A program made the translations under genes and the position numbers. From assembly GCF_050920415.1 (NCBI RefSeq), contig NZ_CP169309.1: a stretch of 64,000 bases of DNA; one strand, 5' to 3'. The notes under the pieces were generated by a model that worked only from the letters and a program-made list of their open reading frames with translations, did no database searches and had not been told where the DNA came from. The DNA is from Escherichia coli (lineage in GTDB: Bacteria; Pseudomonadota; Gammaproteobacteria; Enterobacterales; Enterobacteriaceae). This document shows positions 16,233 to 47,556 of this stretch, piece by piece. The stretch's first letter is position 1. Every line of letters starts with the position of its first letter.

Positions 16233-16568
16233 CATGACTCCTTGCTCATCGCATGAAGACTCCGAGAGTGAACCCCGTTAGAAAGGGTCACACGCATGCC
16301 CCAATACAAAATTATTTGCTCGCCTCTATCGCTGCCTTTTCCTCAAAAGTGGAAAAGACAATGATAAAAAGTTACAAATATGTTAATGAATAAACCAAAT
16401 TGATCCCGTAATTATATTACGCCGCAAAATCCTTACAATAAACAGGTTTTTATTGAGCAAATTTGCATTTTTCGACAGTGATCAATTTATAGCGAAATTG
16501 TCACGACCTCACCAATTTGATCTACGACAATTTATCGTGTTTTGCAGATTTTTTTCAAGAATTAAAAA

Positions 16569-16582
16569 TTGATTTATATCAA
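16569..16582. promoter_or_regulatory. FNR/CRP-family half-site palindrome in the cydA upstream region
   Basis: Perfect TTGAT-TTAT-ATCAA about 335 bp upstream of the cydA start, in a roughly 800-bp AT-rich leader/promoter region. Confidence 0.55.
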
Positions 16583-17035
16583 AACCAATCAAATATGTTA
16601 ATTATGTATAAACCATAGACCATTGGTAATTTTATTGTTAATTTATTGTGAAATATTTATGTAACACAATTATTACAATAAAAAGACATAGATAAAAAAC
16701 CAGTGTTTTATTTAACAGAATCGCCTTATCAACTTTTTATAATACCAATTGATTAGAGTAGCCAATTTGTTGCTATTTTACATAACATATTTTTATCAAA
16801 GTTAATTGATTGTTGCCTTTATGAGCATCGCCGTAAGACCGCCATGTTATTGTTTCATTTGTAATAATCACCAATAAGTATCGATGAGAGAGATATCGCT
16901 TAACAGAGGCGACTGTGTCTGCATGAACACAGGCAACTTTCGCCTGATAAACGAAAAATGAGCGATTTTTGCAAGTTAGTTTTTCTATAGCTGGGTACGC
17001 TGAGCGCCTCGCTTGATTACAATGAGGTTGCTGCC

Positions 17036-19474: not shown

Positions 19475-20862
19475 TGCAAATCGTCTCTGTCGATATTGGA
19501 TCGACGTGGACCAAAGCAGCCCTCTTCACCCGGGAGGGGGACGCGTTAACGTTGGTTAACCACGTTCTGACCCCAACCACCATCCATCATCTGGCAGAGG
19601 GATTTTTCTCCAGCCTTAACCAGGTGTTAAACGTAGATAATGCCCTCCCCCTGTTAAACCGCGGTGAGGTTGCATTGAAGTATTCCTCTTCTGCCAAAGG
19701 TGGGCTGGCGGTTGCCGCAATGGGAATAGTGCCTTCTATCACTCTGGAAACCGCGAAAGTAACCGCTCACTCTGCAGGTGCTAAAATTGCGCAATATTAC
19801 TCCTACAAGCTGAACCGCCGTGATATCCAGGCACTAGAAGAAACGCAGCCCGATATTCTCTTGTTCACCGGCGGCACCGACGGCGGAGAAGAAAGCTACG
19901 GACTGAATAACGCCCGTGTGCTGGCAGAATCCAAACTCGACTGCGCCATTATTTATGCCGGAAACCGGGATATTCAGGACAAGGTGCAGGAGACCCTCGG
20001 GCATAAAGACCTGACCATCGTCGACAACGTTCTGCCCGATCTTGACCATCCGAACCCTTTAGCTGCACGCCAGGCTATCTGCGACATATTCCTTAAACGC
20101 ATCGTTAAAGGGAAAGGGCTGGATGTCATTGTTGATAAAACAGGCGAAGAACCAATGCCGACACCATGGACGGTCTTTGAACTGGTGAAGGCAATCAGTA
20201 ACGTCGATCACAGCTGGAAAGAGTTCATGCTGATCGACATGGGCGGCGCAACCACCGATGTCTATTCCGCCTGTGCCAACACGCTCTCGCCCGACACTGT
20301 TTTACATGGCGTACCGGAACCCTTCGTAAAACGGACGGTGGAAGGCGATCTGGGAATGCGCGTCTCGGCAATGGTGGTTGGTGAAAGTGCGAAAGAGTTA
20401 GTCAGTGTGAATTTTGCTCAGCAACCCGCACAGTTGGACGCTTTTTATCATTACCTCCGTCATCTAGTCGCTCATCCCGACTACTTACCCGCGAATGCAG
20501 ATGAAAAATATTTCGATACCGTCCTGGCCGGACTGTGTGTGGGTTATGCCACCGAAAGACATGCGGGCACCAAAAAAGAGGTCTGCACCTGCGTCGGCAA
20601 TGTCGATTTACAGATGGGACGTGACCTGACAACCGTGCGTAAAGTCGTGGGTTCCGGCGGATGGCTCTCGCGTGCCAGTCAGTTCGATATGCATCACTGG
20701 TTGAAATACCGCGAGTTAAACGACGACGGTAAACGCATTCTCTTACCGACCGAATTTGAATATTACCGCGATTCCCGGGGGCTATTACCACTGCTGGCAA
20801 ACGTCGCCAGAGTCGATCCGCTGGCCGCCGCGCGCACCAGTATTCAATGCTTAACCCTATAA
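19474..20862 (+). CDS. glmL: Glutamate mutase-associated component L (MutL/GlmL-like, predicted actin/hexokinase-fold ATPase)
   Basis: 462-aa ORF translationally coupled to glmS (TGATG) in the conserved S-L-E order; N-terminal DIGSTWTKAA ATPase-like motif. Confidence 0.7.
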   Translation: MQIVSVDIGSTWTKAALFTREGDALTLVNHVLTPTTIHHLAEGFFSSLNQVLNVDNALPLLNRGEVALKYSSSAKGGLAVAAMGIVPSITLETAKVTAHSAGAKIAQYYSYKLNRRDIQALEETQPDILLFTGGTDGGEESYGLNNARVLAESKLDCAIIYAGNRDIQDKVQETLGHKDLTIVDNVLPDLDHPNPLAARQAICDIFLKRIVKGKGLDVIVDKTGEEPMPTPWTVFELVKAISNVDHSWKEFMLIDMGGATTDVYSACANTLSPDTVLHGVPEPFVKRTVEGDLGMRVSAMVVGESAKELVSVNFAQQPAQLDAFYHYLRHLVAHPDYLPANADEKYFDTVLAGLCVGYATERHAGTKKEVCTCVGNVDLQMGRDLTTVRKVVGSGGWLSRASQFDMHHWLKYRELNDDGKRILLPTEFEYYRDSRGLLPLLANVARVDPLAAARTSIQCLTL

Positions 20863-20880
20863 CAATTAAGGCTGCAATCA

Positions 20881-22326
20881 ATGGAACTTCGAAATAAGAA
20901 ATTAACCCATGACGAATTCATGACCGAGCGGCAACAGGTATTGAAAACCTGGGAAACCGGCAAGGATGTTGAAAACTTTGAAGATGGCGTTAAATACCAA
21001 CAAACCATTCCTGAGCATAAACGCTTCTCTCTTGCCCTGCTGAAAGCAGACAAGGAAGGTAAAACCCTTAGCCAACCGCGCGCAGGCGTGGCGCTGATGG
21101 ACGAACACATCGAACTACTGAAAACACTACAAGAAGAGTGCGATCTGCTGCCGAGCACTATCGATGCATATACCCGTCTGAATCGGTACGAAGAAGCGGC
21201 TGTAGGGATTAAAAAATCCATCGAAGCCGGAACCTCTAAACTGAACGGTTTACCGGTAGTTAACCACGGCGTCGCAGCTTGCCGTCGCCTCACCGAAACT
21301 CTGCAAAAACCGCTACAGATCCGCCACGGCACGCCTGATGCGCGTCTGCTGGCTGAAATCTCGATGGCCAGCGGCTTTACCAGTTATGAAGGCGGCGGCA
21401 TTTCCTACAATATTCCGTATGCCAAGCGCGTAACGCTGGAAAAATCGATCCGCGACTGGCAGTACTGCGATCGTTTAATGGGGATGTATGAAGAACACGG
21501 GATCCGCATCAACCGCGAACCGTTTGGCCCACTAACGGGTACGCTAATCCCGCCGTTTATCTCGCACTCTATCGCAATAATCGAAGGCTTGCTGGCACTG
21601 GAACAGGGTGTGAAGTCTATCACCGTTGGTTATGGTCAGGTCGGTAGCCTGACGCAGGATGTTGCGGCGATCCAGTCTCTGCGGGAACTTGCACACGAAT
21701 ATTTTCAGAGCTATGGCTATACCGACTACGAATTAAGTACCGTGTTTCACCAGTGGATGGGAGGCTTTCCGGAGGACGAATCGAAAGCGTTCGCCATTAT
21801 CTCCTGGGGTGCTGCCGTCGCGGGGATGTCTGGTGCTACCAAAGTCATCACCAAAAGTCCGCACGAAGCCTGGGGCATCCCGACTGCTGCTGCCAACATT
21901 CAGGGGCTAAAAGCCTCCCGCCAGATGCTCAACATGGTCAACGAGCAGAAATTCCCGCCGTGCCCGGCGGTTGAACTAGAAATTGAACTGATTAAGAGCG
22001 AGGTTCGCGCTGTACTGAACAAAGTGTTCGAACTGGGCAATGGTGATATTGCGCGCGGTACGGTGCTGGCATTTGAAGCGGGCGTACTGGATGTGCCGTT
22101 TGCGCCAGCCGCCTGCAACGCAGGCAAAATTCTTCCGGTCCGTGACAACACCGGCGCGATACGCGTACTGGAAGCCGGAGCCGTTCCATTGCCAAAAGAT
22201 ATTCTCGACCTCCACCACGATTACGTTGCTGAACGCGCGCGCTTTGAAGGACGCCAACCGACATTCCAGATGGTTGTAGATGACATCAATGCTGTATCCC
22301 ACAGTAAATTAATAGGAAGACCATAA
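20881..22326 (+). CDS. glmE: Glutamate mutase epsilon (E) catalytic subunit
   Basis: 481 aa; long colinear similarity to clostridial GlmE/MutE (LSQPRAGVAL, PSTIDAYTR, NREPFGPLTGTL, FQMVVDDI...). Confidence 0.88.
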   Translation: MELRNKKLTHDEFMTERQQVLKTWETGKDVENFEDGVKYQQTIPEHKRFSLALLKADKEGKTLSQPRAGVALMDEHIELLKTLQEECDLLPSTIDAYTRLNRYEEAAVGIKKSIEAGTSKLNGLPVVNHGVAACRRLTETLQKPLQIRHGTPDARLLAEISMASGFTSYEGGGISYNIPYAKRVTLEKSIRDWQYCDRLMGMYEEHGIRINREPFGPLTGTLIPPFISHSIAIIEGLLALEQGVKSITVGYGQVGSLTQDVAAIQSLRELAHEYFQSYGYTDYELSTVFHQWMGGFPEDESKAFAIISWGAAVAGMSGATKVITKSPHEAWGIPTAAANIQGLKASRQMLNMVNEQKFPPCPAVELEIELIKSEVRAVLNKVFELGNGDIARGTVLAFEAGVLDVPFAPAACNAGKILPVRDNTGAIRVLEAGAVPLPKDILDLHHDYVAERARFEGRQPTFQMVVDDINAVSHSKLIGRP

Positions 22327-23567
22327 TGAAAATAAAACAGGCCCTTTTTACCGCTGGCTACTCCTCATTCTATTTCGATGATCAGCAGGCGATAAAAAAC
22401 GGAGCGGGTCACGACGGCTTTTTTTATACCGGAGAGCCGGTAACACAGGGGTTTAACGCCGTACGTCAGGCCGGGGAGTGCGTTTCGGTTCAGTTGATTC
22501 TGGAAAACGGTGCGGTCGCCGTAGGCGACTGTGCTGCCGTACAGTATTCCGGGGCAGGCGGTCGCGATCCACTGTTCCTCGCAGAGCACTTTATTCCGTT
22601 CCTCAACGACCATATCAAGCCATTACTGGTAGGCCGCGATGTGGATGCTTTCCTGCCGAATGCCCGTTTCTTCGACAAATTGCGTATTGACGGAAACTTG
22701 CTGCATACCGCCGTACGTTATGGATTATCACAGGCGCTGCTTGATGCTACCGCGCTGGCAACCGGCCGTCTAAAAACTGAAGTGGTCTGTGATGAATGGC
22801 AGTTGCCACGCGTGGCGGAATCCATTCCATTATTTGGTCAGAGCGGAGACGATCGATATATCGCTGTCGATAAGATGATCCTTAAGGGCATCGACGTGCT
22901 ACCTCATGCGCTGATTAATAACGTCGAAGAGAAACTGGGCTTTAAAGGAGAAAAACTGCGCGAATATGTCCGTTGGCTATCCGATCGGATTCTAAGCAAA
23001 CGCACCAGCGCACGCTACCACCCTACCCTACACATCGATGTATACGGCACTATTGGTCTGATCTTCGATATGGATCCGCTTCGCTGTGCGCAATACATCG
23101 CCAGTCTGGAAAAAGAGGCGCAAGGCCTGCCGCTCTACATTGAGGGGCCGGTCGATGCCGGTAACAAGCCCGATCAAATCCGCCTGCTGACCGCGATTAC
23201 CAAAGAGCTGACGCGCCTCGGTTCCGGCGTGAAAATTGTGGCCGATGAATGGTGTAACACCTACCAGGATATTGTTGATTTCACTGATGCCGCCAGTTGC
23301 CACATGGTGCAAATCAAAACCCCGGATCTGGGCAGTATTCACAACATCGTCGATGCAGTTCTTTATTGCAACAGCCACAGCATGGAAGCGTACCAGGGCG
23401 GCACCTGCAATGAAACCGATGTCAGCGCCCGCACGTGTGTCCACGTCGCCCTTGCCGCTCGCCCCATGCGTATGCTGGTAAAACCGGGGATGGGCTTTGA
23501 CGAAGGCCTCGATATCGTCTTCAACGAAATGAATCGTACTATCGCGCTGTTGCAGGCTAAGGATTAA
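22326..23567 (+). CDS. mal: 3-methylaspartate ammonia-lyase (beta-methylaspartase)
   Basis: 413-aa enolase-superfamily protein of typical MAL length; start overlaps the glmE stop (TAATG). Confidence 0.85.
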   Translation: MKIKQALFTAGYSSFYFDDQQAIKNGAGHDGFFYTGEPVTQGFNAVRQAGECVSVQLILENGAVAVGDCAAVQYSGAGGRDPLFLAEHFIPFLNDHIKPLLVGRDVDAFLPNARFFDKLRIDGNLLHTAVRYGLSQALLDATALATGRLKTEVVCDEWQLPRVAESIPLFGQSGDDRYIAVDKMILKGIDVLPHALINNVEEKLGFKGEKLREYVRWLSDRILSKRTSARYHPTLHIDVYGTIGLIFDMDPLRCAQYIASLEKEAQGLPLYIEGPVDAGNKPDQIRLLTAITKELTRLGSGVKIVADEWCNTYQDIVDFTDAASCHMVQIKTPDLGSIHNIVDAVLYCNSHSMEAYQGGTCNETDVSARTCVHVALAARPMRMLVKPGMGFDEGLDIVFNEMNRTIALLQAKD

Positions 23568-23570
23568 CAA

Positions 23571-24941
23571 ATGGCTCGTTCTTTTAAAGTCTTATCGCCA
23601 ACGGCAATCCTCGGGTATGGATTCCCGGAAGAGAGCTTCCGCAAAGCGATGGCAGAATCGCCCGATCTGATCGCCGTTGATGCAGGATCTTCCGATCCAG
23701 GTCCCCACTACCTCGGGGCAGGCAAACCGTTTACCGATCGCGCAGGGGTCAAGCGCGATCTGCGCTATATGATCACCGCAGGCGTGCAAAATAATATACC
23801 GGTGGTGATCGGAACGGCCGGCGGTTCTGGTGCCGCTCCACACCTGGAGTGGTGCCGAGAAATAATTCATGAGATTGCCCGGGAAGAGCGCCTCGCGTTC
23901 TCGATGGCGCTGATCCCGGCAGACGTTGACAAAGCCATCGTCCACCAGGCGCTGGATAACGGCAAAATCACGGCGCTGGATTTTGTCCCGCCGTTAACCC
24001 ACGACTCGATTGACGAAAGTACGTATATCGTCGCGCAAATGGGCATCGAACCCTTCCAGCGGGCGCTGAAAGAAGGAGCGCAAGTGGTGCTGGGCGGGCG
24101 CGCTTACGACCCGGCCTGCTTTGCTGCGCTTCCGATCATGCAAGGCTTTGATGAAGGTCTGGCACTGCATTGTGGGAAAATCCTTGAATGTGCGGCAATC
24201 GCTGCAACACCCGGCTCAGGCTCTGACTGTGCGATGGGCATCATTGATGACAACGGCTTTACGCTGAAGACGTTTAATCCGAAGCGTAAATTTACCGAAA
24301 CGTCAGCTGCTGCACACACACTGTATGAGAAATCCGATCCCTACTTTCTGCCAGGACCTGGCGGCGTGCTAAACCTGAAAGGTTGCACATTTAAAGCGAT
24401 CAATGATGGCGAAGTGTACGTCAGCGGTTCTAAGCATGAAGAAACGCCCTATGCCCTGAAACTGGAAGGTGCGCGGCGGGTGGGTTTCCGCTGTTTGACC
24501 ATCGCCGGAACGCGCGACCCGATCATGATCGCCGGGATCGATAACATCATCGATGAAGTCAAAACCAGCGTTTCGCGTAATCTGTCCTTAGACGATGACA
24601 GCATTCGCATCAATTTCCACCTGTACGGCAAAAACGGGGTGATGGGTGACCATGAACCGATGCAAACTGCCGGGCATGAGCTGGGGATTGTCCTTGATGT
24701 AGTTGCACCGACCCAGGAAATTGCCAACAGCGTTTGCTCGCTGGTGCGCTCTACCATGCTGCACTACGGCTATGAAAACCGCATCGCTACCGCAGGCAAC
24801 CTGGCGTTCCCGTTCTCCCCTTCTGATATCCAGGGCGGGCCGGTATACGAATTTTCCATATATCACCTGATTGAAGCCAACGACGCTCTGCGTTTTGATT
24901 TCCATATTGAACAGGTGACGCCAGAAGGAGTTCAGGCATGA
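23571..24941 (+). CDS. Uncharacterised protein, probably DUF1446 (AtuA-like) family
   Basis: 456-aa soluble protein inside the operon, 4 bp after mal; family assignment is from memory of the AtuA-like family and is tentative. Confidence 0.5.
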   Translation: MARSFKVLSPTAILGYGFPEESFRKAMAESPDLIAVDAGSSDPGPHYLGAGKPFTDRAGVKRDLRYMITAGVQNNIPVVIGTAGGSGAAPHLEWCREIIHEIAREERLAFSMALIPADVDKAIVHQALDNGKITALDFVPPLTHDSIDESTYIVAQMGIEPFQRALKEGAQVVLGGRAYDPACFAALPIMQGFDEGLALHCGKILECAAIAATPGSGSDCAMGIIDDNGFTLKTFNPKRKFTETSAAAHTLYEKSDPYFLPGPGGVLNLKGCTFKAINDGEVYVSGSKHEETPYALKLEGARRVGFRCLTIAGTRDPIMIAGIDNIIDEVKTSVSRNLSLDDDSIRINFHLYGKNGVMGDHEPMQTAGHELGIVLDVVAPTQEIANSVCSLVRSTMLHYGYENRIATAGNLAFPFSPSDIQGGPVYEFSIYHLIEANDALRFDFHIEQVTPEGVQA

Positions 24942-25255
24942 AACAGTCAATTGTCTCACTGGCGCAAGTCATTCGTTCGAAAAATGCCGGACCTTACGAA
25001 CTGGTTTTAGATATTTTATTTAAAACGAAAGAAAACTATGAGCGAGTAAAATCATCAGGGCAATTAACCCCAGAACTGATTGCGCGCTTATATCATGTTG
25101 AACCTGACTTTATTCATCGTATTGTCTGGTTTGATCCTTCTAACGCAGTAAAAATTGTCATGCCACGAGATATTATCTCCGGGAATGTAGGTGACAATGA
25201 TGTCTATGGCGCACAGCAACATGCACCTTTATTAAATATGAGTTTCGATTTGTAA
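24938..25255 (+). CDS. Small uncharacterised protein, probably DUF4387-like partner of the preceding gene
   Basis: 105-aa ORF overlapping the upstream stop by 4 nt (ATGA coupling). Confidence 0.5.
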   Translation: MKQSIVSLAQVIRSKNAGPYELVLDILFKTKENYERVKSSGQLTPELIARLYHVEPDFIHRIVWFDPSNAVKIVMPRDIISGNVGDNDVYGAQQHAPLLNMSFDL

Positions 25256-25341
25256 AAATCCGAACACTTTTAGCCAACTGACATCCCGTCACTTATTGCA
25301 GCTCAACACTTCAGCTATTTGTAAGGTTGTTATAGCAGGTA

Positions 25342-25367
25342 GATGCCTGAATCTCTATTCAGGCATC
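25342..25367 (+). promoter_or_regulatory. Perfect 11-bp inverted repeat (stem-loop or operator) between the DUF4387-like gene and the transporter gene
   Basis: gatgcctgaat-ctct-attcaggcatc; no downstream T-run, so not a classic intrinsic terminator. Confidence 0.4.
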
Positions 25368-25415
25368 CACTTCTCCTGATTCTGATTTATCGCCGTGCAC
25401 CTGATGGAGGAAAAA

Positions 25416-26696
25416 ATGAAGAAAATAAGTTTAACTACGATGATTCTTTTGGCGCTGGTACTTGGAATGATTATCGGCGTAGTGCTCAATAACACTGCTT
25501 CACCGGAAACAGCAAAACTCTATGCGCAAGAAATATCGATATTCACGACGATTTTCTTACGACTGATAAAAATGATTATCGCTCCGTTAGTGGTCTCTAC
25601 CCTGGTGGTAGGTATTGCTAAAATGGGCGATGCCAAAGCCCTTGGTCGTATTTTTTCTAAAACACTCTTTTTATTTATTTGCGCCTCATTGCTGTCAATT
25701 GCCTTAGGCTTGATAACGGTAAATTTCTTCATGCCAGGCACAGGAATTAATTTTGTTGCACACGGTGCCGAAACCACCGGAGTGGTCGCGTCAGAACCCT
25801 TTACACTAAAAGTATTTATTTCGCATGCTTTCCCCACCAGCATTGTCGATGCCATGGCGCACAATGAAATTTTGCAAATCGTGGTGTTCTCAATTTTCCT
25901 CGGCTGTAGCCTGACGGCGATTGGTGAGAAAGGCAGCGCCATCGTTCACGCCTTAGATTCGCTGGCACATGCCATGTTAAAGCTCACTGGCTACGTCATG
26001 CTCTTCGCTCCCCTGACCGTATTCGCCGCTATTTCAGCATTGATTGCTGAACGAGGACTGGCAGTTATGGTGAGCGCCGGGATCTTTATGGGTGAATTTT
26101 ATTTCACCATGTTATTACTTTGGGTGCTGCTTATCGGTCTGGCCATCGTTTATGTCGGCCCCTGCATCAGACGCCTGACCCGCGCCCTTTCAGAACCCGC
26201 CCTGCTGGCATTTACCACATCCAGTTCTGAAGCTGCTTTTCCGGGAACGCTTGAAAAACTGGAGCAATTTGGCGTTTCCCCCAAAATTGCCAGCTTTGTC
26301 TTACCCATTGGCTACTCATTTAATCTCGTTGGATCAATGGCCTACTGCTCCTTCGCCACAGTTTTCATCGCCCAGGCCTGCAATATCCATTTATCCATCG
26401 GTGAGCAAATCACCATGCTGTTGATCCTGATGTTGACCTCGAAAGGAATGGCTGGCGTACCACGCGCCTCAATGGTGGTTATCGCCGCCACGCTCAACCA
26501 GTTCAATATTCCGGAAGCGGGGCTGATCTTGCTGATGGGCGTTGATCCGTTCCTTGATATGGGGCGTTCCGCGACAAACGTCATGAGCAACGCAATGGGC
26601 GCTGCGATGGTGAGTCGGTGGGAAGGCGAACATTTCGGCGAGGGTTGTCGGGGTAAAGCATTAAAACCCAATGAATCGAACGTTGCTCTGCCCTGA
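25416..26696 (+). CDS. Dicarboxylate/amino acid:cation symporter (DAACS/GltP-DctA family)
   Basis: Polytopic membrane protein with an AFTTSSSEAAFP motif typical of the family; GGAGG RBS 5 nt before ATG 25416; the track ORF starts at an upstream GTG. Confidence 0.8.
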   Translation: MKKISLTTMILLALVLGMIIGVVLNNTASPETAKLYAQEISIFTTIFLRLIKMIIAPLVVSTLVVGIAKMGDAKALGRIFSKTLFLFICASLLSIALGLITVNFFMPGTGINFVAHGAETTGVVASEPFTLKVFISHAFPTSIVDAMAHNEILQIVVFSIFLGCSLTAIGEKGSAIVHALDSLAHAMLKLTGYVMLFAPLTVFAAISALIAERGLAVMVSAGIFMGEFYFTMLLLWVLLIGLAIVYVGPCIRRLTRALSEPALLAFTTSSSEAAFPGTLEKLEQFGVSPKIASFVLPIGYSFNLVGSMAYCSFATVFIAQACNIHLSIGEQITMLLILMLTSKGMAGVPRASMVVIAATLNQFNIPEAGLILLMGVDPFLDMGRSATNVMSNAMGAAMVSRWEGEHFGEGCRGKALKPNESNVALP

Positions 26697-28465: not shown

Positions 28466-29068
28466 ATGGAAGCGCGAATTTCAACTGAACGGCATGTGCA
28501 GCGCCAGCAGAAATTGAAGGAACAGGTCGATACGCGCGTCGCGGCGGCGATAGAGAAAAAAGGGATCTTGATTGTTTTCACCGGCAACGGCAAAGGGAAA
28601 TCCACTGCCGCGTTTGGTACTGTGACGCGCGCGGTGGGTCATGGCAAAACGGTGGGGGTTGCACAGTACATCAAGGGGCAATGGGACAACGGCGAATACA
28701 ACCTTCTCCAGCCGCTGGGGGTTGAGTTTCATATTATGGGAACCGGTTTTACCTGGGAGACTCAGAACCGGCAAGCGGATATCGATGCGGCGAAAGAGGT
28801 CTGGTCGGAAAGCAAACGGATGCTGGCTGACAAGCGTTACGACTTAGTGGTGCTTGATGAGCTCACCTATATGCTGGCTTACCATTATCTGGATACAGAA
28901 GAAGTGATCACTTCTCTGCAAAACCGTCCGGCACAACAAAGTGTCATTGTCACCGGACGCGGTTGCCACAGTCAGATATTAAAAATGGCGGATACGGTAA
29001 GTGAAATCCGCCCCGTCAAACATGCTTTTGATAACGGCATTCAGGCCCAGCCGGGGATCGACTGGTAA
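28466..29068 (+). CDS. Cob(I)alamin adenosyltransferase (CobA/BtuR family) paralogue
   Basis: 200 aa with P-loop VFTGNGKGKST; colinear with E. coli BtuR. Confidence 0.85.
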   Translation: MEARISTERHVQRQQKLKEQVDTRVAAAIEKKGILIVFTGNGKGKSTAAFGTVTRAVGHGKTVGVAQYIKGQWDNGEYNLLQPLGVEFHIMGTGFTWETQNRQADIDAAKEVWSESKRMLADKRYDLVVLDELTYMLAYHYLDTEEVITSLQNRPAQQSVIVTGRGCHSQILKMADTVSEIRPVKHAFDNGIQAQPGIDW

Positions 29069-29071
29069 TAA

Positions 29072-29105
29072 CTGCGCCTGGCATCCCGCCAGGCGCAGGT
29101 TTTAC
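29072..29105. terminator. Bidirectional hairpin terminator between the cobA-like and LysR genes
   Basis: ctgcgcctgg-catcccg-ccaggcgcag with flanking T/A runs; lies between convergent stop codons. Confidence 0.6.
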
Positions 29106-30007
29106 ATCTCCTGCGGTACGACCGATTTCGCCAGCAACCATTCACGAAATTGCTGCAAGTGCGGAGAGTCAGACTTCTCTTCCTGCCACGTCATAATAAA
29201 ACGATTACCGGTACGAATAGGCACATCACAGGGGATCACCATATCGCCACTATCCAAATCATGTTGAATAGCGAACCGTGGTAACAGCGCCACGCCGAGA
29301 TTAGAGCGCACGGCGGCAATCAGCATTGAAAGCAAATCGAAACGTGGTCCGTTATTGACCAGCGGACTGCTAACGCCAGATAAAGCAAACCACTCTTCCC
29401 AGCCAGTAATACGGGTGCTTTGATGCAGAAGTGGTAACTCAGTAAGCAGTTCTGCCACTGACAGTTTTTGATCGGACATTGCAAGCAAACTGCCGCTGCA
29501 TACCGGCAAAATCTCCTCTTCAAAGAGATATTCTACTTCCGCCCAGGGCGCGCAAAAATTTTCGCGCATAATGACAGCATCGTACTCCCGATTAAGAAAA
29601 TCGCCGTTATTAGCTAAAGAATGAATATTAACAATAATATCGGGATGTAACTTTGTGAATTCATGTAAATTTGGGATTAACCAGTGGGTACTAAACGTAG
29701 GATTAACGGCAAGTTCAATAACCTGAACCGTAGGCTGCCAGGTCATAATCGTATTGGTATCGCGTTCCAGCTTATTTAATGTTTCTTTTACTATCCCCAG
29801 GTAATACTTCCCTGCATCATTAAGAAAAATGCGTTTTTTAGAGTGTGAAAATAACGGAGTATGTAAAAATTCCTCCAGCGCACTTACTTGTCTGAATACA
29901 GCACTTTGGGTTAACGCTAACTCCTCAGCCGCTCTGGTATAACTTTCATGTCGTGCGACGACCTCAAAAGTCACCAGCAGCTCCGTTTTAGGTATTTTTC
30001 CTCGCAT
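29102..30007 (-). CDS. LysR-family transcriptional regulator
   Basis: N-terminal helix-turn-helix (YTRAAEELALTQSAVFRQV) plus co-inducer-binding domain; start chosen at the internal Met (MRGKIP...), the track ORF extends to 30037. Confidence 0.8.
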   Translation of the reverse strand: MRGKIPKTELLVTFEVVARHESYTRAAEELALTQSAVFRQVSALEEFLHTPLFSHSKKRIFLNDAGKYYLGIVKETLNKLERDTNTIMTWQPTVQVIELAVNPTFSTHWLIPNLHEFTKLHPDIIVNIHSLANNGDFLNREYDAVIMRENFCAPWAEVEYLFEEEILPVCSGSLLAMSDQKLSVAELLTELPLLHQSTRITGWEEWFALSGVSSPLVNNGPRFDLLSMLIAAVRSNLGVALLPRFAIQHDLDSGDMVIPCDVPIRTGNRFIMTWQEEKSDSPHLQQFREWLLAKSVVPQEM

Positions 30008-30596
30008 AATGCCGTCCGTGAAAAAATAACAACTCAAAAATTATTTTATAAAAAACAGTAGCACTAATGAATATCATAATTCAAATAAACAAACCAGTCA
30101 GCTATATGTCTAACCAGGAAAATAAAGTGACAATAATCCTAAAACAGGAATTTCACCTCAGTTATCCGCATGCAATACTTTAAAGCTATTATTGCAAGAA
30201 TATTATTCATATACATGAATATACTCTAAATAAGTCAAGTTGCAGGAAGGGAACAAATAATGAATTTCCAGAAGCTTACATAAGTAAGTGACCTGGGTGA
30301 GCGAACATCGATGCAGCACATGCAACTTGAATTATGACAAGTATACAATGATAAATTTATATACCCTATGTTATATATTATCTATGTCCGGTTAAATTGA
30401 ATGAGTCATAGCCTTAAAAGACTTCACAAAAGATAATTCCTCTTTAACAATAAGCCAGATTTACCACTTGTAAAACTTGCTATCGCCACATACACTACGC
30501 GCGTTTTCTTTCCCTTTTGCTGGCTGCTGACCGGAAAGACAAAATTACCCTCGCAATACAGGGGGTTGTTTAACGTCTATATTTCAGGACAGCGTT

Positions 30597-31994
30597 ATGC
30601 ATCATCTTTTAAGGCTTGATAAAGCCTTTCTGCGCAAAGGGATCCAACTTTCCCGTGCCAACAATATTGTTTCATTATGTCGTCCATCAGGAGCCAGTGC
30701 CCGCGTACTGCTGCCGGACGAACTGCCGCTGGAAGAAAAAGCAGTGACACAACTGCTTGATTTTGCAGAAGTGAAGATACCAGGCCATCCAGGTTACGTA
30801 CGCCAGACGTGCGCGACGCCAGATTTTCATCCCGGCAATGGCGTCCCCGTTGGCGCGGTGGTGGCCTCAACGCCGGATTTAGTCATTCCCGCCGCCATCG
30901 GCACCGATATTTCTTGTGGCATGCGGCTGCTGACGACCGGATTAACACTTGAGCAAGCCGAAGCGCATAAAGACGTCATCGCTCAGCGGTTAACGCAAGT
31001 GCTACTGCAAAATGAGCGCGATGTTCCGTTATCCGCACAGGCGTTCACCGCGCTTTTTGATGGCGGACCGGCAGATTGCGTGTCGACCTTGCCATCAGCA
31101 GGTCTCTGGACACGCACGAATATCCCCCGAATGGTACAAGAGATTGACCGCTGCATTGGGCTTAACGAGCATAACAGTCATTCGCGTTATGCCCCACCCG
31201 CCCTGCTGGCAACGGACCGCGCATTACTCCGCGATCCTTGTCTGGGTACGCCGGGTTCAGGTAATCATTTTATTGAACTTCAGGTCGTTGATAGCGTGGT
31301 TGATCGCCATGTAGCCTGGCAACAAGGGCTGAAAACAGGCGATATTGTGGTGATGATCCACAGTGGATCGCGAGATGTTGGCTTTTACGTCGGAAGACGC
31401 TGGATGGATCGCGCCCGTGCTGAATGGCCCACCGGACATAAACATCCACAAAGCGGGTTATATGGTCTGGCAGGCGGACTGGCGGAGGAATATCTACAAG
31501 CGATAGGAATGGCGGCGCGTTACGCGTGGTTAAATCGCGTGACAATTGCCGAAATGGTGCGCGTATGTCTTGCCAATCTCTTTCATCAGGACAATTCGCA
31601 TCTGGTGGTGGATGTGCCACATAACATCATCCTTCGCGAGCATGAAATGAATATTCATCGCAAAGGCGCAACACCGGCACGAGTGGGCAATCTGGCGTTA
31701 ATCCCTGGTTCAATGGGCGATTATTCGTGGCTTGCGGTAGGTTGCGGCAACCCGGAGTGGCTGTGGTCATGCAGTCACGGAGCAGGACGCAGCCAGCGTC
31801 GGCAGGCCATGCGCTCACGCGCGACTGAAGAGTCAACGCTGCCGTGGCAATGCGTCACATTGCGCGAAGAACGACGTCTTGAAGAAGCGCCAGCGGCTTA
31901 TAAAGATATTGGTCCGGTTATCGAAGCTCAACAAGAAGCCGGATTAATTCAGCCAGCGGTCAGATTTCGACCGTGGTTAACGTTTAAAGCATAA
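30597..31994 (+). CDS. RtcB-family RNA ligase paralogue (3'-phosphate/5'-OH ligase)
   Basis: 465 aa with the RtcB signature blocks IPAAIGTDISCGMRL, GSGNHFIEL, MIHSGSRDVG, IPGSMGDYS and CSHGAGR; about 30-aa N-terminal extension relative to K-12 RtcB. Confidence 0.8.
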   Translation: MHHLLRLDKAFLRKGIQLSRANNIVSLCRPSGASARVLLPDELPLEEKAVTQLLDFAEVKIPGHPGYVRQTCATPDFHPGNGVPVGAVVASTPDLVIPAAIGTDISCGMRLLTTGLTLEQAEAHKDVIAQRLTQVLLQNERDVPLSAQAFTALFDGGPADCVSTLPSAGLWTRTNIPRMVQEIDRCIGLNEHNSHSRYAPPALLATDRALLRDPCLGTPGSGNHFIELQVVDSVVDRHVAWQQGLKTGDIVVMIHSGSRDVGFYVGRRWMDRARAEWPTGHKHPQSGLYGLAGGLAEEYLQAIGMAARYAWLNRVTIAEMVRVCLANLFHQDNSHLVVDVPHNIILREHEMNIHRKGATPARVGNLALIPGSMGDYSWLAVGCGNPEWLWSCSHGAGRSQRRQAMRSRATEESTLPWQCVTLREERRLEEAPAAYKDIGPVIEAQQEAGLIQPAVRFRPWLTFKA

Positions 31995-32091
31995 AAAAGG
32001 CCATCATATGATGGCCAACCATGTCGAAACCGACAGCCCTTCGCCATTCCTGTAGAGGGAAGCGGCGAGGGCTATTTCTTATTACAAGTAT
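31993..32091 (-). ncRNA. sdhX: 3'-UTR-derived sRNA SdhX (RybD) with the sucD terminator
   Basis: About 97 nt directly after the sucD stop, ending in the ggccatcat-atgatggcc hairpin plus U-run (31993-32016); assigned from position relative to sucD, sequence identity to K-12 not verified. Confidence 0.45.
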
Positions 32092-32961
32092 TTATTTCAG
32101 AACAGTTTTCAGAGCTTCACCGATGTCAGCCAGGCTGCGAACGGTTTTCACGCCTGCGGCTTCCAGAGCAGCGAATTTCTCATCCGCAGTCCCTTTCCCA
32201 CCGGCAATGATGGCACCCGCGTGGCCCATACGTTTGCCTTTCGGCGCAGTTACACCAGCGATGTAACCTACAACTGGCTTGGTAACGTGCTCTTTGATGT
32301 ACGCAGCCGCTTCTTCTTCAGCGCTACCGCCGATCTCACCGATCATCACGATCGCTTCGGTCTGCGGATCTTTTTCGAACATTTCGAGGATGTCGATAAA
32401 GTTAGAACCAGGGATCGGGTCGCCGCCGATACCGACACAGGTCGACTGACCGAAACCGTAATCCGTGGTCTGTTTAACCGCTTCATAGGTCAGTGTACCG
32501 GAACGGGAAACGATACCCACTTTACCCGGTTTGTGAATGTGACCAGGCTGGATGCCGATTTTACATTCACCCGGAGTGATAACGCCCGGGCAGTTCGGGC
32601 CGATCATGCGTACGCCAGCTTCGTCCAGTTTCACTTTCACCGTCAGCATATCCAGCGTCGGGATGCCTTCAGTGATGGTGATAATCAGTTTGATACCTGC
32701 GTCGATGGCTTCCAGAATGGAGTCTTTGCAGAACGGAGCCGGTACGTAGATAACAGAAGCGGTAGCGCCAGTGGCAGCAACGGCTTCACGCACGGTGTTG
32801 AACACCGGCAGACCAAGGTGGGTAGTACCGCCTTTACCTGGGGTTACGCCGCCAACCATTTTAGTGCCGTATGCAATGGCCTGTTCAGAGTGGAAAGTCC
32901 CCTGGCTACCAGTAAAGCCCTGGCAGATAACCTTGGTGTTTTTATCAATTAAAATGGACAT
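32092..32961 (-). CDS. sucD: Succinyl-CoA synthetase alpha subunit
   Basis: 289-aa match to SucD. Confidence 0.95.
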
Positions 32962-34127
32962 TATTTCCCCTCCACTGCGGCAACAACCTGCTGAGCTGCA
33001 TCCGTCAGACCTTTTGCTGCAATAATATTCAGGCCGCTGTCAGCCAGTTTCTTCGCGCCGAGTTCGGCGTTGTTACCTTCCAGACGTACCACGACCGGTA
33101 CGTTAACACCCACTTCCGCTACCGCGCCGATGATACCGTCAGCGATCAGGTCGCAACGAACGATACCGCCGAAGATGTTAACCAGAACGGCTTTCACTTT
33201 GTCGTCAGAGAGGATGATTTTGAATGCTTCGGTTACACGTTCTTTGGTTGCGCCACCGCCAACGTCCAGGAAGTTAGCCGGTTCGCCGCCGTGCAGTTTA
33301 ACGATGTCCATGGTGCCCATCGCCAGACCTGCGCCGTTAACCATACAACCGATGTTACCGTCCAGCGCAACGTAGTTCAGTTCCCACTGTGCAGCCTGTG
33401 CTTCACGTGGATCTTCCTGCGACTGGTCGCGCATTTCGCGCAGATCAGGCTGGCGGAACAGTGCGTTGCCGTCAGCGCCCAGTTTGCCGTCGAGGCAAAT
33501 CAGATCGCCCTGTTTGGTGATGACCAGCGGGTTGATTTCGATCAACGCCAGGTCGCGCTCCAGGAAAATGGTCGCCAGGCCCATGAAGATTTTGGTGAAC
33601 TGCTGAACCAGTTTACCTTCCAGACCCAGTTTGAACGCCAGCTCGCGTCCCTGATACGGCATCGGGCCAGTCAGCGGATCAAGCGCAACTTTGTGGATCA
33701 GGTGCGGAGTTTCTTCCGCCACTTTTTCGATTTCCACGCCGCCTTCGGTGGAGGCCATAAAGACCACGCGACGGGAACTACGGTCTACAACGGCACCAAG
33801 ATACAGCTCTTTAGCGATATCGGTCGCTGCTTCAACCAGAATCTGGTTAACCGGTTGACCATTGGCATCTGTTTGATACGTTACCAGACGCTTGCCCAGC
33901 CAGTTTTCTGCAAAAGCACGGATGTCTTCTTTGCTGTTTACAACTTTCACACCGCCCGCTTTACCGCGGCCACCAGCGTGAACCTGACATTTCACTACCC
34001 ACGGACCGGCACCGATTTTTGAAGCGGCTTCTTCTGCTTCGCGCGGAGTAGTACAGGCATAACCCACCGGTGCTGGTAAGCCATAGCGGGCAAACAGTTG
34101 TTTTGCCTGATATTCATGTAAGTTCAT
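32961..34127 (-). CDS. sucC: Succinyl-CoA synthetase beta subunit
   Basis: 388-aa match to SucC. Confidence 0.95.
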
Positions 34128-34209
34128 GTGTTCTGTCCATCCTTCAGTAATCGTTATCTTTTAAACCGTAGACCGAATATTTCGTATCGCTTCCGGGTAT
34201 TGTCGGTCA

Positions 34210-34380
34210 CCCGTAGGCCTGATAAGACGCGCAAGCGTCGCATCAGGCATCGCGTGTCGGATGCGGCGCGAGCGCCTTATCCGACCTACATCGGTGCTTC
34301 CCGTAGGCCTGATAAGACGCGTTAAGCGTCGCATCAGGCTTCAATTGCCGGAGAAAGCGATAATGCCTCATCCGGTCTAC
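34210..34380. repeat. REP/BIME cluster in the sucB-sucC spacer
   Basis: Three or more REP palindromes of the gcctgataagacgcg...cgtcgcatcaggc / gccggatgcggcg types. Confidence 0.75.
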
Positions 34381-34402
34381 AGTGCAGGTGAAACTTAAAC
34401 TA

Positions 34403-35620
34403 CTACACGTCCAGCAGCAGACGCGTCGGATCTTCCAGCAACTCTTTGATCGTTACCAGGAAGCCCACGGACTCGCGACCATCGATCAGACGGTGATCGT
34501 AGGACAGCGCCAGGTACATCATCGGCAGGATCTCAACCTGACCATTCACTGCCATCGGACGATCTTTGATAGCGTGCATACCCAGAATTGCGCTCTGCGG
34601 CGGGTTGATGATAGGCGTAGACATCAGGGAACCGAACACACCACCGTTGGTGATGGTAAAGTTACCACCGGTCAGATCTTCAACCGTCAGCTTGCCGTCA
34701 CGGCCTTTAACTGCCAGCTCTTTAATTTTCTTCTCGATGTCTGCCATGCCGAGGGTATCGACATCACGCAGAACCGGCGTCACCAGGCCGCGCGGCGTAG
34801 ATACCGCCATGCTGACGTCGAAATAGTTGTGGTAAACCACATCATCGCCGTCGATAGAAGCATTCACTTCCGGATAACGTTTCAGGGCTTCAACCACTGC
34901 TTTAACGTAGAAGGACATAAAGCCCAGACGGATGCCGTGACGTTTTTCAAACGCTTCACCATACTGCTTACGCAGATCCATAATCGGCTTCATGTTGACT
35001 TCGTTGAACGTGGTCAGCATGGCAGTAGAGTTTTTCGCTTCCAGCAGACGCTCTGCCACACGCTTACGCAGGCGAGTCATCGGAACACGTTTTTCGCTAC
35101 GTGCAGCCAGAGCCGGTTGCGCCGCCGTAGTAGCTGCTGCTGGTGCAGACTCTTTCGCCGGGGCTTTCGCCAGATGTTTTTCCACATCTTCACGGGTCAG
35201 ACGACCACCTACACCGGTGCCTTTAATGGCGCTGGCATCAAGATTGTGTTCAGCCAAAAGGCGACGGATCGCCGGGCTTAAGGCATCGTTGTTTTGCTCT
35301 TCCAGAGACGCCTGTTGGCGTTGTGCCGGAGTTGACGCTTTCTCTTCAGATTTGGCGCTGGTTTCTTTACCGGCGCTGTTGCCTTCACGCAGGCGACCAA
35401 GGATCTGACGAGACGTTACGGTTGTACCTTCATCTTCCAGAACCGCATCCAGAATGCCGTCTGCTGATGCCGGTACTTCCAGTACCACTTTGTCAGTTTC
35501 GATTTCTACCAGCACTTCATCACGTACGACTGCGTCGCCGGGTTTTTTATGCCAGGTTGCGACGGTGGCATCGGCTACGGATTCAGGCAGGTCAGGGACC
35601 AGAATATCTACGCTACTCAT
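34403..35620 (-). CDS. sucB: 2-oxoglutarate dehydrogenase E2 (dihydrolipoyl succinyltransferase)
   Basis: 405 aa with lipoyl domain and catalytic core. Confidence 0.95.
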
Positions 35621-45431: not shown

Positions 45432-45532
45432 TGTCAGCGCCAATGATATAAGACAGTAATTCACCATTTGGATTGTCCGCTCCACCCAACATGTTGTTTC
45501 CTTAAGGTTCCTACACCACAAAGGGAACACTC

Positions 45533-46579
45533 ATGCTGAGCAGAGAGGACTTTTACATGATAAAGCAAATGCGCCAGCAAGGTGCGTATATTGTTGATAT
45601 TGCCACTCAGGTTGGTTGCTCTGAGCGGACTGTCAGACGGTACCTGAAATACCCGGAACCTCCGGCCAGAAAAACACGCCACAAAATGGCCAAACTCAAG
45701 CCGTTCATGGACTATATCGACATGCGTCTGGCTGAGAATGTCTGGAACGGCGAGGTCATCCTGGCGGAAATCAAAGCGATGGGTTATACCGGTGGCCGTT
45801 CCATGTTGCGTTACTACATCCAGCCCAAACGTAAGATGCGGCCATCGAAGAAAACGGTTCGCTTCGAAACTCAGCCCGGTTACCAGCTACAGCATGACTG
45901 GGGAGAAGTTGAGGCTGAGGTTGCCGGGCAACGATGCAGGGTTAACTTCGCGGTTAATACGCTGGGGTTCTCACGTCGCTTCCATGTCTTCGCGGCACCA
46001 AAGCAGGATGCTGAACATACCTATGAGTCACTGGTCCGCGCCTTTCGCTACTTCGGCGGCAGCGTGAAAACCGTGCTGGTCGATAACCAGAAAGCCGCAG
46101 TGCTGAAAAATAACAACGGGAAGGTGGTGTTCAACTCCGGGTTCCTGCTGCTGGCCGATCACTATGGCTTCCTGCCACGGGCCTGCCGTCCACGAAGGGC
46201 CAGAACCAAAGGTAAGGTGGAACGGATGGTGAAATACCTCAAGGAAAACTTCTTCGTCCGGTACCGCCGGTTCGACAGCTTCGCCCATGTTAATCAGCTA
46301 CTGGAGCAGTGGATGGCTGACGTTGCCGACAGGCGGGAACTTCGCCAGTTCAGGCAGACACCGGAACAGCGCTTCACGCAGGAACAGGTGCATCTGCAGG
46401 CGCTGCCAGGTACGGACTTCGATACCAGCTACTTCGATATCCGTCATGTCTCCTGGGATGGCTATATCGAGGTTGGCGGGAACCGTTACAGCGTGCCGGA
46501 AAGCCTGTGTGGCCAGCCGGTATCAATACGGATCTCGCTGGATGATGAACTGCGATTTACAGTAATGAGCAACAGGTAG
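45533..46579 (+). pseudogene. istA: IS21-family transposase istA, C-terminally truncated
   Basis: MLSREDFYMIKQMRQQGAYIVDIATQVGCSERTVRRYL... with HTH; ORF ends about 40 codons before the expected overlap with istB at about 46701. Confidence 0.7.
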
Positions 46580-46700
46580 CATCGCACCGTCTCTGTTCGG
46601 CTGTATACGGCTGGCAGACCGTGCCGGAGCATCACGCCCCACTCTGGCAGCAGGTCAGTCAGGTGGAACACAGGCCGTTGAGTGCCTATGAGGAGCTGTT

Positions 46701-47499
<799 letters not shown>

Positions 47500-47556
47500 T
47501 GACCAATAGCGGACATTAAAAATGGCGAAAAACGGCCAATAATCTTGGCGTTGACA

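Follow-up and report, generated by a model that had tools for sequence, protein, structure and literature searches.

The convergence of an RtcB-family gene on the end of a TCA-cycle operon raises the question of how the gene came to lie there, and of what became of the small RNA encoded in between. In the window (the whole 64,000-nucleotide stretch of Escherichia coli DNA that was analysed), an ORF of the RtcB family (465 aa) is found on the plus strand at 30597-31994, with a TAA stop at 31992-31994. It faces sucD on the minus strand (32092-32961; stop at 32092-32094), the last gene of sdhCDAB-sucABCD. A previous sequence-only reading of the locus had counted 97 bp between the two stops, and the ORF positions agree (31995-32091); the interval itself was right, while its start at 31993 was not, since that position takes in two bases of the rtcB stop codon. 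Altogether, we consider it quite probable that SdhX is intact beside rtcB, that an old 5.6-kb deletion brought the two together and that read-through from rtcB is antisense to the sRNA.

SdhX in the 3′ UTR of sucD

SdhX is an Hfq-dependent, 3′UTR-derived sRNA of sdhCDAB-sucABCD in E. coli K-12 and Salmonella (Miyakoshi et al. 2019, PMC6393394), and the SdhX of E. coli was also treated by De Mets et al. 2019, as cited in PMC9438474. In this literature the sRNA is reported to be made as the tail of the operon mRNA and to end at its own Rho-independent terminator. RNase E is reported to release species of about 101 and 38 nt, and repression of ackA, and in E. coli also of fdoG and katG, is attributed to the seed UUCGACAUGGU together with upstream bases.

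In the window, SdhX (RybD) occupies 31993..32091 on the minus strand, directly 3′ of the sucD stop, on the sucD strand and at the end of the operon. It was delimited by K-12 alignment, literature and fold, and extends over 99 nt from the first base past the sucD stop to the end of U6. Over this whole length, 96 of the 99 nt are identical to SdhX of K-12 MG1655, and the region is taken to correspond to the long SdhX species of roughly 101 nt. Its terminator is a minus-strand stem-loop at 31999..32016, GGCCATCATATGATGGCC (read 32016..31999), with a 7-bp stem, 5 G-C pairs and a 4-nt AUAU loop, followed by T6 (U6) at 31998..31993. The earlier assignment of the interval to the sucD terminator and SdhX is thus confirmed by both the hairpin with its T6 and the match to K-12. 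Moreover, the folding of either strand is far more stable than that of shuffled sequence (z = -5.3 for the minus and -5.2 for the plus strand).

Three positions differ from K-12: UTR nt 4 (32088) has C in place of U, nt 5 (32087) has U in place of C, and nt 83 (32009), in the terminator tetraloop, has A in place of G. The first loop base is A in the window, HB42 and A25, G in K-12 and O157, and U in TPR-type strains. The minimal 38-nt core, equivalent to SdhX2 (31993..32030, minus strand; GUUUCGACAUGGUUGGCCAUCAUAUGAUGGCCUUUUUU, its 5′ end placed by length), matches K-12 apart from one loop base that is freely variable among E. coli, and a 38-nt form of SdhX is functional (PMC6393394). Substantial divergence of the seed from K-12 had been named as a finding that would speak against SdhX; the seed (32018..32028, minus strand), directly upstream of the terminator stem, is identical to the one defined in PMC6393394. 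The nucleotides known to be functional in E. coli are kept as well: G62 (fdoG) is G at 32030 and C34 (katG), tested in PMC6393394, is C at 32058, following the functional definitions in PMC6393394 and PMC9438474. As ackA lies outside the window, we used its start region CCAUGUCGAG as present in strain MFDS1022581, whose DNA shares 99.985% identity with the window along 40.9 kb. The seed forms with this ackA region a duplex of 10 bp at -15.3 kcal/mol, equalled by only 3 of 1,000 shuffled seeds. Since every element known to matter is unchanged, SdhX should act as it does in K-12.

An Rfam scan of 29000-35000 at E<=1 returned no SdhX match, only REP-type naRNA4 elements between sucB and sucC; the library apparently has no SdhX model. 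The identification therefore rests on the K-12 alignment and the literature, and we regard it as homology to an experimentally characterised RNA and not a chance match. In fact, the SdhX region is present at a coverage of at least 80% in 5,424 of 5,426 complete E. coli genomes, and it was found broken in one sampled genome only, through an IS1 element. The UC>CU dinucleotide at UTR nt 4-5 (32087..32088, minus strand), which adjoins the sucD stop, appears lineage-specific in alignment. The K-12 form is present in each of the six further complete SdhX sequences that were aligned (K-12, O157, TPR-type, HB42, MAG L007 and A25), and the 121-nt region around SdhX is at least 99% identical to the window in 2 of the 5,426 genomes. 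The nt 4-5 change is near the place where the long form of SdhX should start.

The junction between rtcB and the SdhX terminator

The slot between cydA and SdhX is variable across E. coli, and the variable DNA ends directly at the SdhX 3′ end, as had been noticed from the sequence. The neighbour is mngR in 3,883 genomes, a TPR-type junction in 547, an intact rtcB in 183 and a degraded rtcB (O157-type) in 838. Across the 5,426 complete genomes at least three different genes, mngR, rtcB and the TPR gene, come to an end no more than about 6 nt from the SdhX U-tract, and all junction types are common from ATAAAAAAGG or GCA(T/C)AAAAAAGG inward. Deeper cuts would deprive a highly expressed TCA-cycle operon of its terminator and abolish an sRNA, a loss that could explain why every neighbour type halts a few bases from the U-tract; we infer that purifying selection keeps the boundary fixed.

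This boundary had been placed immediately outside the sucD 3′ UTR. It lies instead within the last rtcB codon, between 31989 and 31990, where ...ACGTTTAAAG of rtcB origin passes into CATAAAAAAGG of the SdhX terminator tail, with a 1-nt (G) ambiguity of position. It was located by a three-way comparison that included the composite strain A25, and by simulating a deletion of 5,610 bp; the match to rtcB of Escherichia sp. L008 ends at 31987, at which the match to K-12 begins. Backbone sequence thus supplies rtcB with its final sense codon, GCA, and with its TAA stop (31992-31994), and the protein ends in ...TFKA, versus ...TFKG in unfused copies.

In 134 complete E. coli genomes, A25 being one example, a composite order rtcB-mngB-mngA-mngR-SdhX-sucD is found, in which rtcB keeps its own end, followed by 144 bp of 3′ flank that belongs to it. 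The succession of rtcB and mngB is also seen in Escherichia sp. MOD1-EC7003; a contig search with the RtcB protein yielded 8 loci only, too few to resolve outgroup arrangements. Deleting 20483-26092 of locus L015 in silico produces ...ACGTTTAAGG followed by CATAAAAAAGGCC, identical to HB42, MAG L007 and O157, from which the window differs by one synonymous base (AAG>AAA). At the tail base T and the loop base, A25 is as the fused haplotypes are, and K-12 differs. Unfused rtcB copies end in KG with unrelated downstream DNA in three lineages (A25, L008 and L017, the last about 80% identical at the nucleotide level). In L017 a TPR gene lies between rtcB and SdhX, yet the tail GCATAA(T)AAAAAAGG remains beside the terminator, so that the tail belongs to the backbone and not to rtcB.

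Sequence identity, the anatomy of the junction and the existence of the composite arrangement are demonstrated; as to the direction of the event, we favour deletion over insertion. The ancestral composite would have carried rtcB (+), mngB (-), mngA (-) and mngR (+), followed by SdhX-sucD (-). A single deletion of 5,610 bp, from inside the last rtcB sense codon to just past the mngR stop codon, would have joined rtcB to the 5-6 nt lying beyond the SdhX U-tract. In doing so, it would have changed the C-terminal Gly to Ala and made a new in-frame TAA, whose two A's would open the A-tract opposite the terminator U-tract. The idea that an acquisition had preserved the sRNA therefore survives in one half: SdhX is intact, and the supposed insertion edge is better read as the scar of the mngB-mngA-mngR loss. 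K-12 itself, which has mngRAB in this slot and lacks the island, does not derive from the composite by a simple deletion, as about 470 bp of its DNA are unique and the 3′ end of its mngB is diverged.

Deletion or insertion

The opposite direction has the most to be said for it among the alternatives, although we find it unlikely. Accordingly, an rtcB(KA)-SdhX fusion would be ancestral with GCA-TAA as its native end, and mngBAR (in E. coli) or the TPR gene (in the L017 lineage) would have been inserted later between AAGG and CATAA. We had expected KG to be the family norm, and this was overturned: 115 of 120 representatives of the closest subfamily clusters end in KA, as the window does, and 5 in KG. 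KA was also found in 4 of 5 distant loci with a readable end, and the apparent breakpoint falls at the same bond in A25 and L017. The KA majority argues against a deletion, which was retained with lowered confidence after L017 and L008 had been considered. Insertion would require 5.6 kb of non-homologous DNA to enter at one exact bond without mobile-element features, and a pre-insertion allele to persist over lineages about 20% diverged. Moreover, the Escherichia-proximal unfused copies are all KG, and L017 is already a case of an unfused KG rtcB with a GCATAA SdhX tail. The fused type is a minority as well (about 19% of genomes), and it leaves rtcB without a terminator belonging to the gene, whereas in the composite the gene ends are complete.

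A native KA end in Escherichia would make the fusion ancestral, with mngBAR or the TPR gene as insertions into exactly this bond. The GCATAA tail common to L017 is only 6 nt long and needs a 3-nt gap to align, a caveat on the deletion.

The haplotypes are not clustered by junction type, rtcB of the window being 97.4% identical to the composite A25 and 96.0% to the fused HB42, so that the flanks have been shuffled by recombination; in MAG L007 the background of the fused junction is a mosaic. A raised sucD divergence was considered as a sign of an imported segment and rejected, sucD being more polymorphic than sucC in all haplotype pairs.

Less likely again is that an island made of the glutamate-fermentation cluster, a LysR gene and rtcB was inserted beside sucD, with a right edge that happened to spare SdhX. 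Such an insertion would fit the state of K-12, which has mngRAB and no island, and the start of the variable DNA a few nt from the U-tract. It would fit the gene itself too, since the closest relatives of rtcB outside Escherichia are only 57-67% identical (Burkholderiales, Pseudomonas, Gilliamella and Snodgrassella), which makes a horizontal acquisition at some earlier time probable. Against an insertion at this place stand the genomes that hold both mngBAR and an rtcB with its own end and 3′ flank, the equivalence of the window junction to the composite minus 5,610 bp, and a cut through the last rtcB codon that is unexpected at an island edge. A search of the junction for an integrase, a tRNA or direct repeats found none; by genomic-island criteria it does not qualify, and the alternative states of the slot are other cassettes, with no empty site. 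The island is also as diverged from O157 as the backbone is (96.6% identity versus 96.8-97.8% for the flanks), which argues against a recent acquisition. The cluster left of rtcB comprises glmS, glmL, glmE, methylaspartate ammonia-lyase, class I fumarase and cobO, and HB42 has an additional hut cluster between LysR and rtcB.

The RtcB-family ORF gives a full-length match to Pfam RtcB (PF01139, 1.2e-94), scores under the NCBIfam equivalog cut-offs, and has PDFHPGNG, GTDISCG, GSGNHF, IHSGSR and HGAGR motifs that align to the solved RtcB structures 1uc2, 4dwq and 2epg. By its domain and its metal-binding and guanylylation motifs it belongs to the RtcB RNA ligase family as a putative ligase. No rtcA or rtcR partner was found in the neighbourhood. 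Canonical rtcBA is sigma-54 dependent; the search for sigma-54 promoters upstream of rtcB gave matches in the number expected by chance and none in 30038-30596. A promoter-like site at 31983-32012 (+), with a 9/12 match, was likewise taken as chance, 3.5 being expected per region.

Probable read-through from rtcB towards SdhX

Because the rtcB stop ends 4 nt before the terminator stem and overlaps the complement of the U-tract by 2 nt, the rtcB transcript must enter the palindrome. The sequence-only reading was right about this entry; a terminator working in both directions does not follow from it, as the plus-strand hairpin runs on into AACCATG. Bidirectional intrinsic terminators place one hairpin between two convergent genes, which is also the case here, and differ from the window in having symmetric tracts. 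No U-tract was found after the hairpin on the plus strand, where the next bases are AACCATGTCG; the symmetric A-tract/U-tract form being absent on the AACCAUG side and the U-tract present on the SdhX side only, a bidirectional terminator was rejected.

The transcripts of rtcB would now be without their own terminator and would have to cross the SdhX hairpin with no U-tract in that direction, which makes read-through antisense to SdhX likely. The 5′ stem-loop of long SdhX (32035..32073, minus strand), which holds the katG-pairing region with C34 at 32058, is followed on the plus strand by ATTTCTTATT (32074-32083), and this hairpin with its U-rich tail is a candidate terminator for rtcB transcripts, which probably end near 32074-32083 after running antisense to SdhX. 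K-12 mngR shows the same convergent geometry, so that nothing about it is peculiar to the island, and mngR transcripts would likewise run antisense to SdhX.

Perhaps such read-through acts as a cis-antisense RNA or by transcriptional interference, lowering SdhX or the stability of the sucD mRNA 3′ end and coupling rtcB to the control of acetate and the TCA cycle; we hold this to be improbable. The short distance from the rtcB stop to the stem and the missing plus-strand U-tract are consistent with it, and the next hairpin with its U-rich tail (32035-32083) would give about 85 nt of perfect antisense that covers the seed. On the other hand, the geometry is the same at K-12 mngR, and the literature searched for antisense effects of mngR on SdhX, or for a convergent terminator, yielded none. 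Moreover, sdh-suc is very highly expressed and a stand-alone rtcB-family gene probably is not, nor was a strong promoter or sigma-54 site found upstream of rtcB.

A bolder version of this idea, to which we give slightly less credit still, is that the rtcB mRNA would have an obligatory 3′UTR of ~85 nt in perfect antisense to SdhX and its seed, since the deletion would have removed the 3′ end of rtcB itself, and that induction of this RNA-repair-type ligase gene would deplete or sponge SdhX and de-repress ackA. If this is true, a structural variant present with an intact rtcB in about 3% of E. coli (183 genomes out of the 5,426 complete ones) would have created a lineage-specific rewiring of acetate-metabolism and TCA-cycle control. 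Least credible of all is a decay of SdhX that left the interval a mere terminator in this lineage, in spite of the rarity of the allele (2/5,426 genomes at >=99% identity) and two changes close to where the long form should begin, as the 38-nt core is that of K-12 but for one freely variable loop base and the seed, C34, G62 and the ackA site are intact.

Significance and comparison with known systems

The feature is ordinary and largely explained already, SdhX itself being known. The annotation question is mainly settled: the sRNA is intact, this strain should receive an SdhX entry, and the "island edge" next to it calls for no special explanation. A modest evolutionary point is that a terminator doubling as the 3′ end of an sRNA may set a hard limit for structural variation, and that a deletion may borrow a stop codon from the terminator tail of its neighbour.

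Compared to the RtcB RNA ligase family, the window gene shares the full-length domain and the motifs, and its C-terminal residue has probably been changed by the fusion. The cluster beside it is collinear, at 96.6% identity, with the glutamate-fermentation cluster of O157:H7 (methylaspartate/mesaconate, FumD; Kronen and Berg 2015, PMC4682846), in which rtcB is reduced to about 95 nt of remnants, while it is intact in the window. CpxQ, SroC, NarS and MalH, reviewed in PMC9438474 as 3′UTR sRNAs released by RNase E, share with SdhX of the window a seed placed just before the intrinsic terminator of the parental mRNA and conservation past the stop codon, and show no relevant difference from it. 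Finally, SdhX of K-12 has the same locus, strand and place after the sucD stop, with identical seed, C34, G62, terminator stem and U6; the window differs from it in UC>CU at nt 4-5, in one polymorphic tetraloop base and in a convergent neighbour that is an RtcB-family gene and not mngR.

Results

The RNA at 31993-32091 is recognisable from its sequence as the known sRNA SdhX (RybD), and appears intact. The RtcB-family ORF (30597-31994, plus strand) ends in a TAA stop at 31992-31994 and sucD lies on the minus strand at 32092-32961, leaving the 97 bp (31995-32091) proposed in the sequence-only reading, although its start at 31993 took in two bases of the rtcB stop. As that reading also proposed, the sucD terminator hairpin is within the interval, where the minus strand carries GGCCATCATATGATGGCC followed by T6 (32016..31993), a textbook intrinsic terminator, and each strand folds far more stably than shuffled sequence (z = -5.3 and -5.2). 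A search of the region against Rfam gave no SdhX match; the identification thus relies on homology to the RNA characterised in K-12. Alignment with K-12 MG1655 over the 99 nt that follow the sucD stop and close with the U-tract bore it out with three differences only, namely U to C at UTR nt 4 (32088) and C to U at nt 5 (32087), both adjoining the sucD stop, and G to A at nt 83 (32009) in the terminator tetraloop. That loop base varies freely: HB42 and A25 have A, K-12 and O157 have G, and TPR-type strains have U.

The seed UUCGACAUGGU is placed directly upstream of the terminator stem-loop, and compensatory mutations showed E. coli G62 (fdoG) and C34 (katG) to be functional (Miyakoshi et al., PMC6393394); SdhX species of ~101 and 38 nt are described (review PMC9438474). 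Divergence of the seed was looked for and is absent, the seed (32018-32028), G62 (32030) and C34 (32058) all being as in K-12. The ackA gene lies outside the window and was inspected in E. coli MFDS1022581, a near-copy (99.985% over 40.9 kb): its start region CCAUGUCGAG is predicted to pair with the seed over 10 bp (-15.3 kcal/mol), an energy matched by only 3/1,000 shuffled seeds.

Across the tol-cyd-suc-sdh backbone, the window shares ~97% identity with K-12, O157:H7 and a B2-type strain. The sucB-sucC spacer holds two REP-type elements (34211-34381; Rfam naRNA4/CssrE, scoring 76.5 and 46.3 bits), as in K-12, while O157, HB42 and a TPR-type strain are without them and have a 93 bp spacer. 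Downstream of gltA, an IS21-like element (ISEc62, ~45432-47560) interrupts a fimbrial usher gene; its istB is frameshifted in the near-identical strain, and the contig end of an Escherichia sp. locus (L008) has 62 bp identical to its left edge (45432-45493).

The cydA-sucD interval varies between strains, and five states were seen: mngB-mngA-mngR in K-12; two hypothetical genes, the glutamate-fermentation (methylaspartate/FumD) cluster described for E. coli O157:H7 (PMC4682846), a LysR gene and rtcB in the window; the same in O157 with rtcB cut down to ~95 nt remnants; the same in HB42 with a hut cluster between LysR and rtcB; and a TPR-protein gene only in others including ATCC 11775, IHE3034 and Nissle (EcN). 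A composite order, rtcB(+) mngB(-) mngA(-) mngR(+) SdhX-sucD(-), occurs in 134 complete E. coli genomes, among them A25, and Escherichia sp. MOD1-EC7003 has rtcB then mngB as well. The neighbour protein (465 aa) belongs to the RtcB family over its full length and has the catalytic motifs; it scores under the NCBIfam equivalog cut-offs, has no rtcA or rtcR partner here, and its closest relatives outside Escherichia are only 57-67% identical. The ~8 kb hut (histidine utilisation) cluster of HB42 and of a MAG labelled Citrobacter sp. HRGM_Genome_0066 (L007) starts 108 bp upstream of rtcB, in what is a 560-bp LysR-rtcB gap in the window (30038-30596); A25 and the window have 387 bp upstream of rtcB in common, and 30038-30209 is without a match in any locus compared. 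The TPR-repeat gene lies beside SdhX and shares its strand: in a relative ~80% identical it comes after rtcB (L017 9588-10805), and in 547 E. coli genomes it occurs without rtcB (L004 6747-7862).

Junction-specific megablast with queries of 66-78 nt, whose counts are approximate and overlap slightly, classed essentially all 5,426 complete E. coli genomes as mngR-SdhX (3,883), TPR-type (547), rtcB-SdhX with rtcB intact (183) or rtcB-SdhX with rtcB degraded, O157-type (838). Common to all types is the sequence inward from ATAAAAAAGG or GCA(T/C)AAAAAAGG, and SdhX was found at >=80% coverage in 5,424/5,426 genomes. The only clear disruption seen among the 5,426 is the IS1-broken SdhX of FDAARGOS_944. 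There (L005 7248-7945, equivalent to window 32018/32019), IS1 sits after the seed (UUCGACAUGG) and before the terminator stem, so that the terminator is cut off from both the sRNA and sucD. A25 has a natural SdhX variant (L015 26092-26194) in which the first position flanking the seed is changed from U to G (GGUGUCGACAUGG in place of GGUUUCGACAUGG), and its SucD ends in Q, not K. In TPR-type strains (L004 ~8040-8050, e.g. RIVM_C040348), the SdhX 5' hairpin loop reads CAGGAGGGGCG in place of CAGGAAUGGCG (AU to GG), close to the katG-pairing stretch.

Discussion

The rtcB-SdhX junction is most likely what a deletion left behind, not the edge of an insertion. In A25, rtcB ends ...ACG TTT AAG GGG TAA and keeps a 3' flank of its own (144 bp), and mngR closes with ...CGA TAA, after which come GCATAAAAAAGGCC and the terminator. 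In silico removal of A25 20483-26092 (5,610 bp) gives ...ACGTTTAAGG|CATAAAAAAGGCC, which is exactly the junction of HB42, O157 and the MAG; the window has one synonymous difference (AAG to AAA at 31988). This match places the junction at 31989|31990, within the last rtcB codon, and the Ala codon GCA and TAA stop of rtcB are backbone sequence. The two A's of that stop open the A-tract that pairs with the SdhX U-tract; were 31992 to carry the K-12 base (C), the ORF would continue to 537 aa, running antisense across SdhX and sucD. The boundary, read from the sequence as falling immediately outside the sucD 3' UTR, is thus placed more exactly, inside the last rtcB codon. The proposal that an acquisition spared SdhX holds for the intact sRNA, but the composite genomes and the 5,610-bp simulation make its edge most likely a deletion scar. 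All this is a tidy, minor evolutionary note.

The direction of the event is the weakest step of the argument. Among the 120 nearest cluster representatives in this RtcB subfamily, 115 share the Lys-Ala end of the fused gene, which by itself would point to the fusion being native. However, every Escherichia-proximal rtcB copy that has a 3' flank of its own (A25, L008 and L017) ends in Lys-Gly. In L017, whose rtcB has 87% amino-acid and ~80% nucleotide identity, the TPR gene separates rtcB from SdhX, yet GCATAA(T)AAAAAAGG still precedes the terminator, which argues that this tail is backbone and not an rtcB end. A deletion is also mechanistically simpler than an exact 5.6-kb insertion without mobile-element features, and is on balance the more probable direction.

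These haplotypes have clearly been reshuffled by recombination, and the arrangement in K-12 does not derive simply from the composite one. Between K-12 and A25, divergence is 11-15% over the last ~400 nt of mngB, against 0-6% for the rest of mngBAR (L002 541-1300 vs L015); a recombination breakpoint lies inside mngB. Upstream of cydA (16224-16607), K-12-type (mngRAB-only) and island, composite or TPR-type strains are ~80% identical, far more diverged than the flanking genes, suggesting very old or imported haplotypes. The MAG, with the same fused junction, is a mosaic (hut-rtcB-SdhX-sucDC 95-97% to E. coli, sucAB 88%), reflecting either interspecies recombination or a chimeric bin.

Read-through of rtcB into the palindrome, also proposed from the sequence, fits a stop ending 4 nt upstream of the terminator stem. 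On the plus strand, the SdhX hairpin is followed by AACCAUG without a U-tract; it would thus not be a two-way terminator, and is expected to terminate in one direction only. The next plus-strand hairpin (32035-32073), followed by AUUUCUUAUU, is a plausible candidate site for rtcB transcription to stop; the transcripts would in that case run antisense to nearly the whole of SdhX. Upstream of rtcB, a promoter search found no sigma-54 and no strong sigma-70 promoter. A sigma-70-like TTTAAA-18 nt-TATGAT (31983-32012, plus strand; 9/12 match), which includes the window-specific A31988 and loop base T32009, would fire antisense into SdhX and is probably due to chance. The arrangement is not special to the fusion, since mngR in K-12 is placed in the same way, its stop lying 10 nt from the stem, so that the fusion adds nothing qualitatively new.

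SdhX itself offers nothing new relative to the known RNA. The natural explanation for the fixed boundary would be purifying selection on the terminator and the sRNA; removal of the entire 3' UTR lowered SucD protein and impaired growth on acetate (Miyakoshi et al., PMC6393394).
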